Origin: Alphaproteobacteria bacterium
GTDB taxonomy: Bacteria; Pseudomonadota; Alphaproteobacteria; MPNO01
Direction: 5' to 3'
Assembly (NCBI GenBank): GCA_964291675.2
Contig: OZ219866.1
Span: forward strand, 1,216,001-1,280,000
DNA: 64,000 nt
The notes under the pieces: model-generated
Seen by the model: the letters and a program-made list of their open reading frames with translations, nothing else
Database searches by the model: none
What the model was told of the DNA's origin: nothing
Part shown: piece after piece, positions 16,287 to 23,712 of the stretch
How the letters are laid out: each line of letters begins with the position of its first letter
Numbering within the stretch: position 1 is the first letter of the stretch
Translations under genes and position numbers: made by a program

Positions 16287-17413
16287 TCAAGACTAAGGGT
16301 ACCGTCGTGATTGTGTGTGGCTGGACGTGAACATATCCTTCAGAACGCAACTTCTTGGTAGTGTTGCTGACCTATGTTCCGAATGCAACTTTGCTCTGGC
16401 AAGACCGGACATCTTAGTAGAGTTGCTCGTTAGACTTGCGCGTTACCGAGAAGAAGGCACGAAACTTGCGCCGCAGGTTTATTTGACTGACGATATAGAC
16501 TTTGTAATGAAACTGCTTCCCGGCGGTGAAAAAGTCCCTCTTTCGACTGCGGCATCAGACCCCAACGGAGTTGAAAAATTGCTTAAGTTGTGCGCTCCCT
16601 TAGCTGTCGGTGAATGGAGGATATTCGGCCAACAGATTGCCGACGAACTTACTTTCGGTGTTTTCCGTGGATCAAGCAATCCCATATCAGTTAGTGTGGA
16701 TGATACTTTGTTGTCAGAACAGACTGAAGCAACGGTTATCAAATTACATCAAGTTGCAGAAGAATGTGTGCAACTACGAAGTTCTAAAGGTCACTGTGAT
16801 CACGTGTTCTTTAATCATCGCAAAGTGGAAGATCCAACCCCTCTTCAGTATATTGATGAACTCATTAATAGCATTGTAAAGAAAGTAGAAGACGATGTCA
16901 GAGATGCCGCACACGGCTTTATTGCAAAGACTATACAATCTGCGTTGGTTCACTCTCATGGATGTCTTTTGGCTGTTACTAGTATGCCGAGACCCCCGCA
17001 AGTGCTAAGTCTTGACGCCGTGATATTGGATCGGCCGATCGATTTCCCTTCGTTGATCAGGCAATTGAAGAAAGATGATGATACTAGCACTTGGTTACAG
17101 CATATCGAAAGAGAGGCTCAGTTAGTTGAAGGAATGATCAATTGCGATGGAATTACATTGTTTGATCAGTATGGGAAGTTGCTTGCTTATCGTTGCTTCA
17201 TCCAATTGCCAAGACGAGTGGACGTAGGGGGAGGAGCCCGACGGCGGGCCTTTGAAACTCTAAAGGGGCGACTAGGCAAAGGTCTCTCAGCCGTAAGCGT
17301 TCGGGGTAGCCGCCCTTGTCAGGGGTAGGTTCGGGACCGCAGTCTCTGTTCCGGGATTTGGCGGCCGATAGTGTCCATTATCGGCTAATGGACACTATCG
17401 TTGGGGGGCTGCG

Positions 17414-17761
17414 GTGGCGCGTCGTGTACGCCGGTTCTGGTCGGACGATGAGAAGCGCCGGATTGTTGCGCAGAGCTACGCGCCCGGGGTTTCGGTGTCG
17501 GTTGTGGCGCGTCGCTACGACGTGAACTCCAACCTGATCTTCACTTGGCGGCGCGATCCCCGCTACAGGCCGGCGGCGGATGGCGAGGGTGCGCCGTCCT
17601 TCCTGGCGGTGGAGGTGGTGCCCGATGCGCCGCCGTCAGAGCCGTCTGCGGCATCGGAGGGTCGGATCGAGATTGCGTTGTCGAGCGGCCACCGGGTGAG
17701 CGCGATCGGGGCGTTCGACGTGGACGCGCTGTGTCGCGTGGTGCGGGCGCTGGGCGGATGA
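17414..17761 (+). CDS. tnpA: IS66 TnpA (HTH)
   Basis: [13 protein letters not shown]...[19 protein letters not shown]. Confidence 0.92.
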
Positions 17762-18105
17762 TCCCGGTCCCGTCCTCGACCCGGGTATGGCTGGCCTGCG
17801 GGGTGACCGACATGCGCAAGGGGTTCCCGGGGCTTGCGGCGCAGGCGGAGCGGGTGTTGAAGGCGGATCCGCATTGCGGCCATCTCTTCATCTACCGGGG
17901 CCGTCGGGGCGACCTGATCAAGATGATCTGGTGGGACGGCCAGGGAGCGTGCCTGTTCTCGAAGCGTCTTGAGCGCGGCCGTTTCGTGTGGCCGTCGGCG
18001 TCGGAGGGCAAGGTTTCGGTGACGCCGGCGCAGCTGTCGATGCTGTTGGAGGGGATCGACTGGCGGGCGCCGGTTCGCACCTGGCGGCCTTTGGCGGCGG
18101 GATGA
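17758..18105 (+). CDS. tnpB: IS66 accessory protein TnpB
   Basis: [28 protein letters not shown]. Confidence 0.95.
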
Positions 18106-19526
18106 TTCATCGTTTATATACAATAGGTTGACTCCTATCCGGGCTTCCCTTTGGCGGCCTTTTCCTGTAGGCTGCGGTCATGCTCGAAGAGGCGCATTCC
18201 CTGCCTGACGACATCGCCGCACTGAAGGCGATGGTGCTGTCCTCGCGGGCCGAGGTGGCGGCGCGGGACGCCGAGTTGCGCAACCGTGACCTTCTGATCG
18301 AGAAGCTCAAGCACCAGCTTGCGGGTCTGCGCCGCCAGCGCTTCGGCGCCACTTCGGAGGCCCTCGATCAGCTTGAGCTCGGGCTGGAGGACGAGGAGAT
18401 CGCGCGCTCGGCCGAGACGTTTGCCGAGCCAGCCCCGGCGGCAAAGAGACAGCCCAAGCGCCGTCCCTTGCCGGACCACCTGCCGCGCGAGGAGACGCAT
18501 CTCGCGCCTTCAGGCGATCGCTGCGCGGACTGCGGCGGTCGCCTCAAGCGTCTCGGCGAGGATGTGACCGAGGAGCTGGAGTACATCCCCGGCCGCTTCG
18601 TGGTGAAGCGCATCGTGCGCCCGCGCCTGGCCTGCGGCGGCTGTGAGACGTTCCACCAAGCGCCGCTGCCGTCGCGGCCGATCGAGCGCGGCCGTCCGGG
18701 CCCGGGCCTTCTGGCGCATGTGCTGGTCTCGAAGTACTGCGATCACCTGCCGCTCTACCGTCAGTCGCGTATCTTCGCCCGCGATGGCGTCGATCTCGAC
18801 CGCTCGACGCTGGCCGGCTGGGTGGGCAAGGCGACGGCGCTGCTGGAGCCCCTGGCCGATGCCGTCGGGCGCCATGTTCTGGGCGGCCAAGCCCTGTTCG
18901 CCGACGACACCCCGGTCAAGTTGCTGGCGCCGGGGACCGGCAAGACGGCGACGGGTCGGGCCTGGACCTATGTCCGCGACGAGCGTCCGTGGAAGGGCGA
19001 GGCATCGCCGGCGGCGTGGTATCGCTTCTCGGCCGACCGCAAGGCGGCGCATCCGAAGAGCCATCTCGCGGGCTACGCCGGCTGGATGCACTCGGACGGC
19101 TATGCCGGCTTCGGCGCACTGGCGCGCGCGGGGCCGGTCCGCGAGGTCGCCTGCCTGGCCCATGTGCGGCGCAAGTTCTTCGACGTCCACGCCGCTCAGG
19201 GCTCGGCGGTCGCCGCCGAGGCGCTGGAACGGATCGCCGCGCTCTACGCCATCGAGAAGGAGGTCCGCGGGCAGCCCCCAGAGCGCCGCGTCGCGATCCG
19301 CCGCGCCAAGGCCGCGCCGCACCTCGATGAGTTCGAGCGCTGGCTGCAAACGCAACTGCCGAAGCTCTCCGCCAAGACCCCGCTGGCGGCGGCGATCCGC
19401 CATGCGCTGACCCGGCTGAAGCGCCTGCGGCCCTATATCGAGCACGGCTTCCTCGAGATCGACAACAACCCGGCCGAGCGCGCGATGCGCCCGATCGCGA
19501 CGATGGAGTCATTCTGCACCCCTTCT

Positions 19527-21599
19527 TCAAGTGTCTGAAAACATTGACATCTGATCCCGACATGAAGCGCGACGCGGGTCTTTCCGCAGTGCCAGGGCGT
19601 TGGCGACCCGCTCGGAATGGAGGTCTTTGGCCCTGATTTGCCAGGGCGCTCCGGGAACGAGTTGCGTGGCAGGTAGCGTTCCATCCTCGATCAGGCGCCT
19701 GAGGGTATGGCTGGTCGTGCCCAACTCTTTCGCCGCCTCGGTCATGGTGCGCCAGTCGCCCTGCTTGTCCGCTGAGAGGTAGCCGTCGATCCCGTTCACA
19801 CGCCGGATCGATCCGACCCGGTGAGCGGTCCAACTCTTGTGCTGCCCGGTCCGCATACCCATCCGGTTGAGCGACGCGGCGATATGTTCGTCCGACCATC
19901 GCCCGGCCATGCTGCGTATCACTGCCAGAGCTTCCTCGGGCGTTCGGCAGCCATGTTCGCCGCTCTTGGGCTTGCGGACCCTGAGACGGGAATGACGGCC
20001 ACCCATCCAGTGGATCGTCAGCAGGACGTCACGCGCCTCTTCGTCGACATCGACGATTATGCCCATGATCAGGGTGCGCACGAGACGCTGGCGGGCGCGC
20101 ATGCTCACCCCGGGCGCGTTCCAGGCGGCCTTCAGGTCGTCGGCAAGTCCGGCCAGGTCGGGGACAGTGGGCCGCGGCGACGGCATCGCGCCCAGCCTTG
20201 CTTCGCACGCCTGGACGCGTCGAAGCGCTGCCTCCCAACTCTTCTCCAGCTCGGCGGCGATCAGCCGGTTGTCCGGATCGCAGGCGGCGTAGCGCCGCTC
20301 GGCGAGCGCCGCCTCGTAGCGGGCTTGCTGCAGATCCAGCTCGGCCACCCGTTGCTGTTCGGAAAGACCCTCCGCGTTCATCCGCTCGGCTTCCAACGAG
20401 GCTTCCACCGCCATGGGCTCCACGACGCGGAGGATCTCATCGGCAACGGCCGCATCCACACGCGCACCCCCGAACCCCAGACAGGGCTCTAGCTCGAGCT
20501 GGAGGTGTCGCCGATTGCAGCGGTAGACAGGATTGCCGGGCGTGCGACCGGAATAGGCAACGCTCATCGTGCGTCCGCAGCGTGCGCAACTGAGGAGGCC
20601 GCCAAGAAGCGCCCGCCCGCCGCGCCCCGACTTCGTGCCCCCCGCCTTGCCGAAGGCATTGGCGGCGAGCTGCGCCTGGTTGCGCTCGAACTCCGGCCAG
20701 TCGATGTAGCCCTCGTGATGGTCCTTCAGCACGACCTCCCATTCCGCCATCGGCTTGCGGTGTCCATAGCTCTTGCGCACGCGCCCGTCGACGATCTCGG
20801 TCCGCCGCTCGCTTTTGCCGTAAGCGTAGACCCCGGCGTAGAAAGGGTTCTTCAACACCGAAATTACGTTGCGATAGCGGATCGGCGTCCAGTCGAAGGA
20901 GACCATTGTCCTGCCATCCGACGGGCGTGGGAAGCAAAGCTTCTGCCCGCTCAGCGCCAGCAACACCTGCCGCGCGCTGCCAAGCTCGCGAAACCGGGCG
21001 AATACCTGACGGATCGCTTCCTGAACCCGAATGTCGGGGTCCAGCCCCAGCCCGGCCTCGGGATGCCAGACGTAGCCGATCGGGACGCTGATGCGAAGCT
21101 CGCCGCGGGCGGCCTTGGAGCGGGCGGCCTCGAACATCCGAGCGCGCAGAACGCCGAGTTCGAACTCGCTGATCTGGCCCTTCATGCCGAGCAGCAGACG
21201 ATCGTTGGGGTGGCGAGGATCGTAGATGCCATCCTGGTCGATGACGCGTGCCTCGACGAGACCGCAGAGCTCGAGAAGATGGTGCCAGTCCCGGCCGTTG
21301 CGAGAGACCCGCGAAGCCTCGAAACAAAGCACGGCTCCAACGTCCCCGGCGCACAGCCAGGCGACGAGGCGCTCGAAACCGGGCCGCGCAACGGCACCGT
21401 CCGCCGACAGGCCCTGATCGTCGTCGATGACTTCGACCCGGGCAAAGCCGTGCCCGCGCGCCACATCGACGAGATCGTATTGGCGGCGCTGGCTCTCCAG
21501 ATTGTTCCGCATCTGCTGGGGCGTGGACTGACGGACATAGACCACGGCCTTGCGCGTCAACACCGATCGCGGCAACGCTTCAGCGACGCCCATCGTCAT
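19527..21599 (-). CDS. Large serine recombinase (resolvase, recombinase, Zn-ribbon, coiled coil, C-terminal HTH); start 21599 or 21593
   Basis: YVRQST catalytic Ser motif, RPGF, SRVSRN, CARCG...YRC, C-terminal excisionase-like HTH (TMTEAAKELG). Confidence 0.95.
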   Translation of the reverse strand: MTMGVAEALPRSVLTRKAVVYVRQSTPQQMRNNLESQRRQYDLVDVARGHGFARVEVIDDDQGLSADGAVARPGFERLVAWLCAGDVGAVLCFEASRVSRNGRDWHHLLELCGLVEARVIDQDGIYDPRHPNDRLLLGMKGQISEFELGVLRARMFEAARSKAARGELRISVPIGYVWHPEAGLGLDPDIRVQEAIRQVFARFRELGSARQVLLALSGQKLCFPRPSDGRTMVSFDWTPIRYRNVISVLKNPFYAGVYAYGKSERRTEIVDGRVRKSYGHRKPMAEWEVVLKDHHEGYIDWPEFERNQAQLAANAFGKAGGTKSGRGGRALLGGLLSCARCGRTMSVAYSGRTPGNPVYRCNRRHLQLELEPCLGFGGARVDAAVADEILRVVEPMAVEASLEAERMNAEGLSEQQRVAELDLQQARYEAALAERRYAACDPDNRLIAAELEKSWEAALRRVQACEARLGAMPSPRPTVPDLAGLADDLKAAWNAPGVSMRARQRLVRTLIMGIIVDVDEEARDVLLTIHWMGGRHSRLRVRKPKSGEHGCRTPEEALAVIRSMAGRWSDEHIAASLNRMGMRTGQHKSWTAHRVGSIRRVNGIDGYLSADKQGDWRTMTEAAKELGTTSHTLRRLIEDGTLPATQLVPGAPWQIRAKDLHSERVANALALRKDPRRASCRDQMSMFSDT

Positions 21600-21765
21600 C
21601 CTCCTTCACCGGGGCGGTCGCCGCTTCCAGAAGCAACCCGGCCACTGCGCTCACCACCGCGTCTCGTTCCTCCGAGCTCAGACCGCGCAGCGTCGGTGCG
21701 TCGAGCGGCATGCCGAGCTGTCGGGGTTCTCTCGGCGGTCGCGCTGTTACAGGCAAAGACTTCAT
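21580..21765 (-). CDS. Small accessory protein of the recombinase element (61 aa)
   Basis: GGAGAGGAG RBS then ATG; ...LSSEERDAVVSAVAGLLLEAA helical peptide overlapping the LSR start. Confidence 0.65.
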   Translation of the reverse strand: MKSLPVTARPPREPRQLGMPLDAPTLRGLSSEERDAVVSAVAGLLLEAATAPVKEDDDGRR

Positions 21766-22075
21766 CGCGCTCCTCTCCGCTAACGGTTCCGTCATCGGGG
21801 GAGCTATGTCGAAAACCTTGGCCGACGAGAAGCTCGTGAAGTGCGGCGAGGGCGGCCGGGGAGGCACGCGGCGCGCCGATCTCCATGCCGGCGCATGACG
21901 CAGGATCAAGCATCCAGGCGGGTATCTTGATGATCAGCCCCGGCTCTACCTCGACGGAGGCCATGAGGCCGTCTGCACGCTGTTCGATAACTTCAGGGCG
22001 TACTCGCCGACCGAACAGTGCGTGCCAGCGGTAGTGGATGACGCAATCCTGCCCGATATGGGCAGAATGAATGCG
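21596..22075 (-). CDS. Accessory protein body whose 5' end (ATG at 19512) lies at the opposite end of the element; 166 aa in the circular form
   Basis: Open from the right att junction (RIHSAHIGQDCVIHYRWHALFG...IPAWMLD) to a TGA overlapping the LSR ATG; no start codon upstream of the junction in the integrated state. Confidence 0.7.
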   Translation of the reverse strand, partial: RIHSAHIGQDCVIHYRWHALFGRRVRPEVIEQRADGLMASVEVEPGLIIKIPAWMLDPASCAGMEIGAPRASPAALAALHELLVGQGFRHSSPDDGTVSGEERDEVFACNSATAERTPTARHAARRTDAARSELGGTRRGGERSGRVASGSGDRPGEGG

Positions 22076-22389
22076 CGATCGCCTTGGGCCGGAAGAACTA
22101 TCTCTTCATGGGCTCAGCCAGCGGCGGCCGGGCCGCCGCCATCGCCTACACCTTGATCGAGACCGCAAGGCTCAACCACGTCGACCCGCAGGCTTGGCTT
22201 GCCCAGGTTCTCGAGCGCATCCCCGACTACAAGATCAACCGCGTCGAAGAACTGCTGCCCTGGAACTGAACGCCGACCGCAGATCAGGGCCAAATCGCCT
22301 GAACGCCCAGGGCGGCTCCGCCCAACGCTTACTCTCAGCCGCCTATATTCGATCCGAAGATGGGTGGACAGACTTCGGGAGCACTGCCC

Positions 22390-23712
22390 GTGGCTAATAC
22401 AATGAAACTATGGCAGCCGGACAAGCAACAATTAGTGCCCAAGGATGCACGAACGGCAAAGTCCATTGCTAAGTGCGCTAGGCAACTTTCCCAGCGAGAC
22501 AAGGGACAGATCGTATCAGCATTCAAGTCCGGCCACTACGATATGGGGATCAATTTCCTCTGGCTTAGAACTATCGCAGCGCTGAAACGGGAATTGGCGA
22601 CCGTAGGGATAGGACTGTTAGGAGAAATGCTTGGGCGAGTTGGGGTAAATGAAGACGACGATATCGAGGATCTTCTAACGCCACGTGAAACGATTCGCTT
22701 GGCTGGGGAATTAGGCGCCATCTCTCAGACCGAAGCTATGCGATTGCGACAGACGCATGAATTGGTTGTCCATTTTAACCAACTCTCTTTTGAGGAGGAT
22801 CCACTCGAAGAAATCAACGAATCGGAAGCAATCACATCCCTTAGGGCATGTGTTTCAGCGGTGCTCGCGAAGCCAAAAATAGAGGTCGCTAAGACTTTTG
22901 TTGAATTCAGGGAATCTCTAGAGACCGAGGCATTTGGGTCGGATGAAGAAAAGATCAATTTGCTAGTGGGTTCTCCATACTTCTTTTGGAAGTTAACCAT
23001 CGACATCCTGATGAACTCCGCAAAGGATTCGTCCGGCGTTAAGTTGGAACATTGCTTGGCTAATTTAAACGTTATATTGCCTAAGTTGTGGCCAAATTTG
23101 AAAGATGCCGAGAAGTGGCGCGTCGGACGCACGTATGCTGAAGTGCATTCAGAAGGAAAGTCAACTTCATCGAGCGGCCTAAAGCAGGCTCTCATGAAGG
23201 TGCAGGGATTTGACTTTGTGCCTGAGAACCTTCGCAGTGATACCTTTGTCAAAGCCGCTGAGGCAGTGGTGCGTGCCCATGACGGAATGAATAATTTCTA
23301 TAATGAAGGCGCACCAGTTAGAAATCTTGCCCAACTCGGAACTTCAATTCCGCCGCCCGCTTTGCCAGCATGTATGACGGCGTTGTTGGCAGTATACGTC
23401 GGAAATCAATATGGTTATTCTTTCGAAGCAGCTCCCGTGGCAGAGAGGATGCTGTCTGGGATTAGTGATGATAGGTGGCGCTATTATTTGAACCAAGTGT
23501 TGCCCAACGATACTAGGATACTCAATAAACTAGCATTGCATTCCAAGCCGCGCGGGCGATGGATGGATTTAGTTGATCGGAATGCCCTTGGCGAATGCCG
23601 AGTTAATGACCGTCGGGTGGGTAAGATGCTCGATGCTGCAGGGCAAAAGAACGAGAACGAGATTGGTCAGACCGCGAAAAAACTCTTGGGACGATATTAC
23701 AAAAAAGCGTGA
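22390..23712 (+). CDS. Hypothetical helical protein, possibly HEPN/DUF4145-like N-terminus
   Basis: About 440-aa AT-richer ORF; GGGAG RBS then GTG overlapping the DAC-like stop; SAFKSGHYDMGINFLW...LKREL and RLRQTHELVVH motifs. Confidence 0.75.
   Translation: MANTMKLWQPDKQQLVPKDARTAKSIAKCARQLSQRDKGQIVSAFKSGHYDMGINFLWLRTIAALKRELATVGIGLLGEMLGRVGVNEDDDIEDLLTPRETIRLAGELGAISQTEAMRLRQTHELVVHFNQLSFEEDPLEEINESEAITSLRACVSAVLAKPKIEVAKTFVEFRESLETEAFGSDEEKINLLVGSPYFFWKLTIDILMNSAKDSSGVKLEHCLANLNVILPKLWPNLKDAEKWRVGRTYAEVHSEGKSTSSSGLKQALMKVQGFDFVPENLRSDTFVKAAEAVVRAHDGMNNFYNEGAPVRNLAQLGTSIPPPALPACMTALLAVYVGNQYGYSFEAAPVAERMLSGISDDRWRYYLNQVLPNDTRILNKLALHSKPRGRWMDLVDRNALGECRVNDRRVGKMLDAAGQKNENEIGQTAKKLLGRYYKKA

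Follow-up and report, generated by a model that had tools for sequence, protein, structure and literature searches.

How can a gene be expressed when its ribosome-binding site and start codon lie at one end of an integrated element and the remainder of its reading frame at the other? The question is raised by a locus in contig OZ219866.1 of an alphaproteobacterial genome, of which a stretch of 64,000 nucleotides was analyzed (hereafter the window; coordinates are positions in it unless a contig is named). Between positions 19497 and 22080, on the minus strand, an element of 2584 bp that encodes a large serine recombinase (LSR) is inserted in tnpC, the transposase gene of an IS66 insertion sequence. 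Judged by its sequence, this is a minimal LSR-driven integrative element, with a gene set consisting of ORF1, ORF2 and LSR, all on the minus strand. The explanation that best accounts for the locus as a whole, and that we consider probable, is that ORF1 is split across the attachment site of the element (attP), is rebuilt on excision, and encodes a cofactor of the LSR that is produced in a state-dependent manner.

ORF1 at the two ends of the element

The LSR gene terminates with TGA at 19527-19529. Beyond it, on the same strand, a purine-rich, Shine-Dalgarno-like tract, AAGGGGTG (19517-19524), precedes by 4 nt an ATG at 19510-19512, and this ATG, along with what would be codons 2-5 of ORF1, is contained in the LSR-end half of attP (positions -1 to -21; 19499-19519, minus strand). 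At the opposite end, a frame reading RIHSAHIGQDC... is open from 22105 down to a TGA at 21596-21598 and contains no ATG, GTG or TTG ahead of the ATG at 21964, as a preliminary description of this DNA had already noted for both ends. The part of this frame that belongs to the element (21596-22080, minus strand) would form the body of ORF1 from codon 6 onward, comprising a predicted SH3-like domain of about 100 residues and an open, unconstrained tail that extends to the LSR start; its first 21 bases are the ORF1-end half of attP (+1 to +21; 22060-22080, minus strand) and encode ..SRIHSAH. When the two ends were joined in a script, they produced an open frame of 166 codons, with the crossover between codons 5 and 6 and the TGA overlapping the first ATG of LSR (21597-21599), which reproduces the fusion described beforehand. 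From the comparisons that follow, we think that the far-end ATG is the start of ORF1.

The element is flanked by both halves of one IS66 tnpC, which is encoded on the plus strand and split at ...RPIA|LGRKNYLF. The N-terminal part (18180-19496), cut after ...AERAMRPI(A), matches DDE_Tnp_IS66 (2.8e-89), zf-IS66 and LZ_Tnp_IS66, and the C-terminal part (22083-22269), which begins with LGRKNYLF..., matches DDE_Tnp_IS66_C (5.2e-19), in agreement with the initial view that the element interrupts a tnpC antisense to its own genes.

Ends, crossover and mobility

A second copy of the element is present in the same genome (C2:3465975-3468540, on the contig of the window), identical but for a 1-nt deletion and inserted at the same motif of another tnpC, which shares only 41% identity with the one in the window. 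Comparison of the four junctions left GC as the sole sequence common to both junctions of the second copy, and hence the crossover is the GC dinucleotide (copies at 19497-19498 on the LSR end and 22081-22082 on the ORF1 end) and the element measures 2584 bp. The 7-nt identity CGATCGC, originally taken for the core, is found in the window because this particular target happens to read on like the element. In three of the four Logan runs compared (X1, X2 and X4), contigs pass from 19491 directly to 22076 with exactly 2584 bases omitted, again placing the ORF1-end copy of the GC at 22081-22082, and restore the reading of tnpC; these contigs are uninterrupted IS66 copies, that is, empty sites, in the same samples. 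At loose contig ends, an end of the element is joined to further IS66 variants. The att sites show imperfect dyad symmetry with a 2-bp crossover, and insertion is precise, with no target duplication beyond the core. The occurrence of identical copies in different IS66 genes, together with the empty sites, points to mobility and, indirectly, to LSR-catalyzed recombination of attP with an attachment site in the target (attB).

Relatives of ORF1 number 898 among cluster representatives (E<=1e-3), and matches are present in 168 plasmid records, including those of Sinorhizobium (among them S. meliloti) and Rhizobium. A scan of species-representative genomes yielded 78 loci in Alphaproteobacteria, Betaproteobacteria and Acidobacteria, 18 of which show, in tblastn, the order antisense tnpC C-terminal part, ORF1, (ORF2), LSR, antisense tnpC N-terminal part. 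The comparison set used below consists of 35 complete elements with 27 distinct end pairs ("distinct elements"); most are 2.56-2.62 kb in size, with deletion or insertion variants of 2374, 2466 and 2981 bp. The core at the right junction is GC in 46 and AC in 5 of 58 distinct insertions. In 5 of the 58 right ends, the ORF1 end joins the sense N-terminal part of tnpC, so that both orientations occur, as would fit a palindromic GC core. The element targets the conserved coding motif ..R-x-(I/V)-A|L-G-R-K.. of IS66-family tnpC.

The same data bear on the proposal that integrated copies are dead ends and ORF1 is a decaying gene fragment at the end of an element. Remnants do exist, including one without LSR, premature stops are found in two elements (L080 and L086), and the second copy in this genome has suffered its 1-nt deletion. 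However, strong purifying selection is evident across the 27 distinct elements from three phyla, one genome contains identical copies in different IS66 genes, the samples with the element also contain empty sites, and the family is as large as the count of relatives given above; we regard decay as highly improbable.

The remnant without LSR (cp3; C2:2699-3182) is 80% identical to the element and is located in a third IS66. It retains ORF1 and ORF2, and the homology stops exactly at the LSR start, where an IstB-like (IS21) coding sequence follows. In two loci (L020 and L034), the tnpC C-terminal part flanks the element on both sides in opposite orientation, and in another (L010), two copies of the element stand back to back; inversions between IS66 copies may be made possible by the palindromic GC core.

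The attP site and the putative far-end start codon

The attP site is an imperfect palindrome of about 42 bp centered on the GC crossover. In the 27 distinct elements, both halves contain an 11-bp inverted repeat, GGGCA(C/G)AATGA, at -21 to -11 and +11 to +21, that is, beginning 10-11 bp from the core. The ATG on one half and the CAT on the other are invariant (27/27); the CAT, which the ATG mirrors, is the His codon of the HSAH motif in ORF1. From ATG to CAT, the distance amounts to 14 + 2 + 11 = 27 nt, and this fixed spacing puts the ATG in the ORF1 frame in all elements.

For the far ends, 44 LSR genes were taken, and the 75 nt that follow their stops were compiled without requiring an ATG and read by eye. 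ATGA is located at the expected place in 42 of these 44 ends, and in 43 after correction of the end of one locus (L027), so that the distal in-frame ATG anticipated for homologues is conserved, with the caveat that its position within the att repeat fixes the frame. The counts rest on this LSR-stop-anchored list; a strict regular expression miscounted ends, and the 11-mer repeat alone is unsuitable for finding the far end, chance matches at 8-9 of 11 positions being common in a control stretch. A Shine-Dalgarno-like 4-mer (GAGG, GGAG, AGGA or AAGG) precedes the ATG by 6-12 nt in 24 of the 27 distinct elements. The purine tract (-31 to -22) has no mirror counterpart on the other half. It persists in elements where it is non-coding as well as in an Acidobacteria-type clade, in which it encodes the C-terminus of the LSR. 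In six loci of this clade, the LSR stop overlaps the ORF1 ATG, as ATGA or TAATG. The single exception among the 44 far ends (L029) has ATA in place of ATG; it comes from a 2907-bp contig in a record titled Mycobacterium sp. KBS0706, though the element is typical of Proteobacteria.

Such a site could be read differently: the ATG and the purine tract would function as a recombinase site only, the in-frame join would be accidental, and ORF1 would be made from the integrated copy, starting from the internal Met at 21964, from GTG or TTG near HYRWH, or from a non-canonical codon, with HSAH being a translated half-site. We consider this unlikely. It draws on the complete conservation of the ATG/CAT mirror pair within the inverted repeat on both halves, and herein lies the main caveat to a split ORF1. 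The repeat includes the ATG as well as the GGG belonging to the purine tract; with the ATG in a palindromic half-site, recombinase binding alone would conserve it, and its being in frame follows from the geometry of the site with a chance of one in three, so that the geometry could be either a coincidence of that order or a selected feature. What a binding site alone does not account for is the unmirrored purine tract, maintained in coding and non-coding contexts alike.

The joined form in public data

A query pattern that combined the two half-site motifs matched one contig, from a JGI metagenome (L088), in which the LSR C-terminus, TGA, GAAGGTGGAGCACA (including GGTGGAG), ATG and an ORF1 relative follow one another unbroken. 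This ORF1 carries an IS3-family insertion (OrfA/OrfB) near codon 90 (L088:200-1750), and, as a reservation, the contig may represent a stable replicon or a tandem and not a free ring. The pattern had no matches in 87 loci, 401 genomes of the same class (this one included) and viral contigs; in genomes, its absence is expected for single integrated copies. Similarly, no ring junction (a joint leading from one end of the element back to the other) was detected for this organism when Logan contigs of runs X1-X4 were compared with 19300-22300, but contigs drop rare variants and, for this reason, a missing joint says nothing about rings.

Among 198 database proteins with the HSAH motif, 10 begin exactly 9 residues before the His. 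Far-end-type N-termini are found in eight distinct proteins (P0015, P0035, P0054, P0089, P0138, P0181, P0204 and P0215), which begin with M-(T/N/S/I/D)-... and derive from ENA, Logan and JGI contigs of 660-2712 bp. They share 5-8 of the first 9 residues with ORFs rebuilt from integrated elements, the best agreement being that of P0015 with L041 and of P0215 with L077 (8/9 each); five flank-start controls share 4/9, which equals the residues encoded by the near end. Going by these sequences, the joined form of ORF1 exists in public contigs and proteins. That gene callers report ORFs from the junction ATG on real contigs is also at odds with a role of this ATG as a recombinase site only.

Coding constraint and starts in the integrated state

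The codon-position entropy over codons 14-49 in the 27 distinct elements is 27.3 / 24.5 / 50.1. By this measure, selection on ORF1 as a protein sets in with the first codons past the att repeat, and the residues upstream of Met 21964, on the conservation of which the preliminary description had staked its case, are indeed constrained. Upstream of 21964, the differences between the window and cp3 are mostly synonymous or at third positions, and GCT replaces that ATG. Met 21964 is not conserved in alignments outside the closest clade, and a start there would delete the first 37 residues of a confidently modeled beta-barrel. The coding signal, beginning at codon 15, is upstream of every internal start in most elements and, along with the poor conservation of Met 21964, speaks against expression of ORF1 from an internal start in the integrated copy. 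So does the association of the ORF1 stop with the LSR start (see below), which argues that the frame is translated. A test for stop codons across the 9 junction codons is weak, with 0/27 in the ORF1 frame vs 2/27 in another frame.

The flanks of integrated copies provide few starts. Among 61 distinct integrated right ends, 37 have no in-frame ATG, GTG or TTG between the upstream stop and the CAT; an ATG is present in 10, and a start with a Shine-Dalgarno-like 4-mer in only 5. The first downstream start ranges from codon 8 to codon 52 and is located at codon 22 or later in 52 of the 61 ends. The claim that full-length ORF1 is made only from the excised form is consistent with the 37 startless ends, but "only" is too strong, given that the other 24 integrated copies have some in-frame start in the flank.

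Several observations weigh against a start at the junction ATG. The 24 copies with a flank start include the second copy in this genome, which has an ATG 10 codons upstream. Of the 198 HSAH-motif proteins in the databases, 45 were called with a start in the flank, 10 codons upstream, and 32 with one 3 or 5 codons upstream that belongs to the end of the element. Met 21964 is kept in the closest relatives (L010-L015) and may be usable as a start in that clade; residues 63-89, the predicted contact helices, would still be present in the 122-aa product. A codon-phase signal is absent from codons 2-9, and the N-terminal extension is outside the conserved domain, the canonical member of the DUF5372 family in this genome (discussed below) starting 6 residues before the shared motif. 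The latter two points, as well as the many called proteins that start just ahead of HYRWH, would also be compatible with an att site that is merely translated along with ORF1.

The called proteins that start in the flank suggest a further possibility, namely, that starts supplied by the target express the integrated ORF1, so that the IS66 variant that was hit, and not excision, would decide on expression. The N-termini of the 45 proteins that begin 10 codons before the His read M(I/T/P)(F/S).. from the flank, and the corresponding ATG, antisense to TCA-TGG (Ser-Trp), is present in the second copy and in L016. The sample of called proteins is biased because gene callers require a start, however, and an ATG occurs at that place in only 2 of the 61 distinct integrated ends, most of which have no start at all or none with a Shine-Dalgarno-like 4-mer, as counted above. 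Furthermore, the flank varies with orientation, as the 5 of 58 right ends joined to the sense N-terminal part of tnpC demonstrate. An expression switch of this kind appears decidedly improbable to us, and a start of ORF1 at the rebuilt junction is the interpretation retained here.

IS66 targets in which Ser-Trp is encoded as TCA-TGG show CATGA three bases farther from the core than the AATGA of the element, which is how such targets provide the in-frame ATG 10 codons before the His in the second copy, L016 and the 45 database proteins. The offset may reflect reading of attB vs attP by the zinc-ribbon domain of the LSR.

LSR, ORF2 and possible stop-start coupling

The LSR gene (19527-21599, minus strand) encodes a protein of 690 aa if translation begins at the ATG at 21599, or of 688 aa if it begins at that at 21593, with the Pfam domains Resolvase (2e-20), Recombinase (1e-17), Zn_ribbon_recom (2.5e-7) and HTH_17 (5.5e-6); its relatives are 66-89% identical. 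The C-terminal HTH_17/excisionase-family domain (residues 618-661; 19545-19745) scores 30.1 bits with TIGR01764 (cut-off 28.8). The family conserves this domain, which phage integrases do not usually have.

In 21 of the 25 elements with a placeable LSR start, the TGA of ORF1 overlaps the LSR start codon by one base (17 ATG, 3 GTG and 1 TTG); the other four comprise one TAATG, one 14-nt overlap and two premature stops. The codon-phase signal moves to the ORF2 frame about 330 nt after the CAT, and therefore the tail of ORF1 is not selected as protein. Its frame is nevertheless kept free of stops as far as the LSR start, as coupling by termination and reinitiation would require.

ORF2 (21580-21765, minus strand; 61 aa) is in the +1 frame within the ORF1 tail and has its own GGAGAGGAG. 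Relatives retain its start, its Shine-Dalgarno tract and the motif ..PRQLS..FDS..LRGM...ER....LA.LL.EAAG; the gene is 54-77 aa long in most elements and is intact in the integrated state. On this conservation, ORF2 is a genuine gene with an initiation of its own, and its overlap with the LSR start amounts to about 20 nt. One Sinorhizobium plasmid record lists ORF2 but not ORF1 of the two small genes, in a gene table that is incomplete. The 1-nt deletion in the second copy of the element (equivalent to window position ~21819) fuses the ORF1 domain to the ORF2 frame, giving 171 codons; the database protein P0024 is the same fusion, and P0006 joins the frames further on. Such fusions could be natural variation or a hint of frameshifting.

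Fold of ORF1, probable relation to DUF5372 and predicted docking on the LSR

Neither ORF1 nor ORF2 has a family in Pfam (E<=0.01 for ORF1), NCBIfam or PHROGs. Sub-threshold Pfam matches to Raffinose_syn in 17 of 66 ORF1 relatives were taken as spurious; one JGI record (P0192) is named Raffinose_syn, probably a case of spurious annotation spreading in databases. The AlphaFold model of ORF1 (mean pLDDT 82.4, pTM 0.58) contains an SH3-like barrel from about residue 11, within which residues 11-20 are modeled at pLDDT 94. A Foldseek search of this model against the PDB returned nothing at E<=0.001, and a sequence search of the PDB with the ORF1 profile returned nothing at E<=1; a wider structural search with VIA-align found KOW/Tudor/SH3-like barrels with Z of 5-6, a common fold from which no function was assigned.

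In a language-model search, ORF1 is nearest to clusters of DUF5372 (score 0.93). It scores below the gathering threshold of Pfam DUF5372 (PF17342; 25 bits), and DUF5372 matches were obtained for only 2 of 66 ORF1 family members (best E 0.043). With hhalign, the ORF1 profile aligned over 72 columns with P0177 (E 0.0016, probability 16%), a bona fide DUF5372 protein of this genome (1.2e-18 in Pfam) that has its own ATG. The two share the motif order (V/F)xV(H/T)(Y/H)(R/P)(W/F)HPL(Y/H)GR, ..DP.., and a Leu-rich helix and, like P0177, ORF1 is located upstream of an LSR. A distant relationship of ORF1 to DUF5372 is likely on these grounds. The locus of P0177 (C2:3649410-3652840; L091, L006) contains a second LSR, 37% identical to that of the element, with an HTH_28/HTH_23 protein and P0177 upstream; this P0177-HTH-LSR order is possibly the ancestral layout of the ORF1-LSR pair.

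A complex of the LSR (alignment of 23 sequences) with residues 1-105 of ORF1 (alignment of 66) was predicted with scores of 0.69, 0.72 and 0.69 in three runs vs 0.01 for the best control. Of 80 solved complexes, 58 scored this high, as did 2 of 110 mismatched pairs, a rough calibration given that it is based on our own alignments. The runs agree in at least 84% of the contacts, with a partner pLDDT of at least 71, and the predicted contacts on the LSR (335-342, 386-403, 474-508 and 526-536) are situated at the junction of the zinc ribbon and the coiled coil. As ORF1 has no sequence relative in the PDB, recall of a solved complex is unlikely, though conceivable for the LSR side. The prediction thus puts ORF1 on the part of the LSR to which directionality factors attach.

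Proposed role of the split gene

If ORF1 straddles attP, with its Shine-Dalgarno tract, ATG and codons 2-5 after the LSR stop and the rest at the other end, integration would behead it, and excision to a ring, or formation of a head-to-tail tandem, would rebuild the ribosome site, the ATG and ORF1. Ribosomes starting at the rebuilt ATG would terminate on the LSR start codon (ATGA), and the excised form would yield ORF1 and extra LSR together; in the Acidobacteria-type clade, the overlap between the LSR stop and the ORF1 ATG would close a ring of coupled genes. ORF1 would act as a cofactor on the directionality surface of the LSR, would be made solely in the rebuilt state, and would be switched off again by integration.

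The accessory or directionality role suggested for this protein at the outset has to be rethought, since a canonical excision factor that is made only after excision is implausible. In this respect, our explanation is awkward, since a factor at the directionality site that is produced post-excision misfits the usual model of an excision trigger. A classical trigger made solely after excision makes no sense, and a role on the free ring is accordingly favored, in which ORF1 would help attP x attB recombination or exert positive feedback in trans on sister copies. Our guess is that ORF1 promotes re-integration, or exerts positive feedback on excision, and is not a classical trigger. Candidates for the factor that starts excision would be ORF2 or the excisionase-like domain fused to the LSR.

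A more far-reaching version, which we offer tentatively and regard as rather doubtful, is that the element stores its recombination state in the integrity of the cofactor gene, with a ring-only, DUF5372-related protein resembling a recombination directionality factor, and is a self-limiting switch that operates without a regulator. The cofactor would then invert or feed back on the directionality logic within a closed LSR-ORF1-LSR stop-start loop and would drive the ring into a new IS66 or excise sister copies in trans. The integration that it promotes would shut it off, and the element, as a parasite, would silence another transposon in a reversible manner.

Comparison with known systems

In copy-out insertion sequences, which employ a DDE or DEDD transposase, promoters are assembled at the circle junction from -35 and -10 halves. 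The present element differs in that it has a serine recombinase and in that an open reading frame is split; a scan limited to the sigma-70 consensus detected neither a sigma-70-like promoter nor a terminator in 19300-22400. Promoters that depend on the ring or on the recombination state are described for ICEclc (Pcirc) and ICEKp1 (P3'end) (PMC13023037), and a junction promoter for Tn4451/Tn4453 with TnpX is indicated by the title of Lyras and Rood 2000 in the reference list of that article. As with these promoters, the ring would bring an expression signal from one end before a gene at the other, and Tn4451 also encodes an LSR. Those systems join or reposition promoters, whereas in the present element it is the body of the gene that is parted from its ribosome site, its start codon and its first codons.

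In mycobacteriophages of clusters G, N and P, attP is reported to lie inside the repressor gene, which is co-transcribed with the integrase (PMC9262239). The likeness consists in an att site within a coding sequence, such that the recombination state decides the product. According to the same account, the phage gene loses its 3' end and the prophage form is active, and the parts are a tyrosine integrase, an attB in a tRNA gene and a repressor, whereas here the 5' end (ribosome site, ATG and five codons) is removed, and the parts are a serine enzyme, IS66 tnpC and a predicted cofactor. The "suicidal" integrases of the SSV type, found in archaeal viruses and plasmids and exclusive to archaea according to a review (PMC8371274), likewise have the recombination site within a gene of the element that is split by integration; there, it is the tyrosine integrase itself that is split, as the review presents it, and here, in Bacteria, the recombinase remains intact and the gene that is split is an accessory one.

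Directionality factors of large serine integrases are described as binding at the junction of DBD2 (the zinc ribbon) and the coiled coil despite their unrelated folds (PMC12286644). ORF1 resembles them in being small, adjacent to the integrase and predicted to dock at that junction. The known factors are expressed in the integrated state and trigger excision, and it is in this state that the ORF1 gene is incomplete. The gin element in gerE of Bacillus cereus (GirC/GirX), a small non-phage gene-intervening element (PMC5595907), also combines a site-specific recombinase with a small factor and restores a host gene on excision; it has three recombinase genes and is developmentally regulated in a host gene, and its abstract mentions no split gene of the element.

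The principle of an attP within a gene is therefore already known, and we found no precedent for the variant with an LSR and a cofactor gene split at the 5' end. Searches of the open-access literature, with supplements outside their scope, returned no LSR element with a cofactor gene interrupted at the 5' end, no LSR insertion or homing into IS66 tnpC and no paper naming DUF5372, in line with the earlier remark that the arrangement was undescribed for this type of element. The directionality of LSRs is normally set by a separately regulated factor, and here the product of the reaction seems to decide whether the cofactor gene exists; if this is true, a minimal control circuit that resets itself would be contained in 2.6 kb, and the element, because it hits a conserved motif of the IS66 transposase, would be a natural and reversible switch on another mobile element. 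It would offer a first testable role for a DUF5372-like protein, and the compact set of LSR, att sites and cofactor could have potential for genome engineering. For annotation, the locus is a warning that start-less genes at the ends of elements may be whole when excised.

Genomic surroundings

Contig C1 contains, at positions 902345-905345, a 100% repeat of at least 3 kb of C2:1235300-1238300 (window 19300-22300) and also duplicates the second LSR locus; the assembly probably contains a redundant segment, and its contamination estimate is 6.67%. Within the window, the interrupted tnpC is preceded by the other two genes of the IS66, tnpA (17414-17761, plus strand; Pfam HTH_Tnp_1, 2.2e-11) and tnpB (17758-18105, plus strand; TnpB_IS66, 4.1e-38). 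The IS66 is flanked by two long ORFs of lower G+C content (16315-17328 and 22360-23712, plus strand) with no Pfam match, and it seems to be located in a foreign, AT-richer island.

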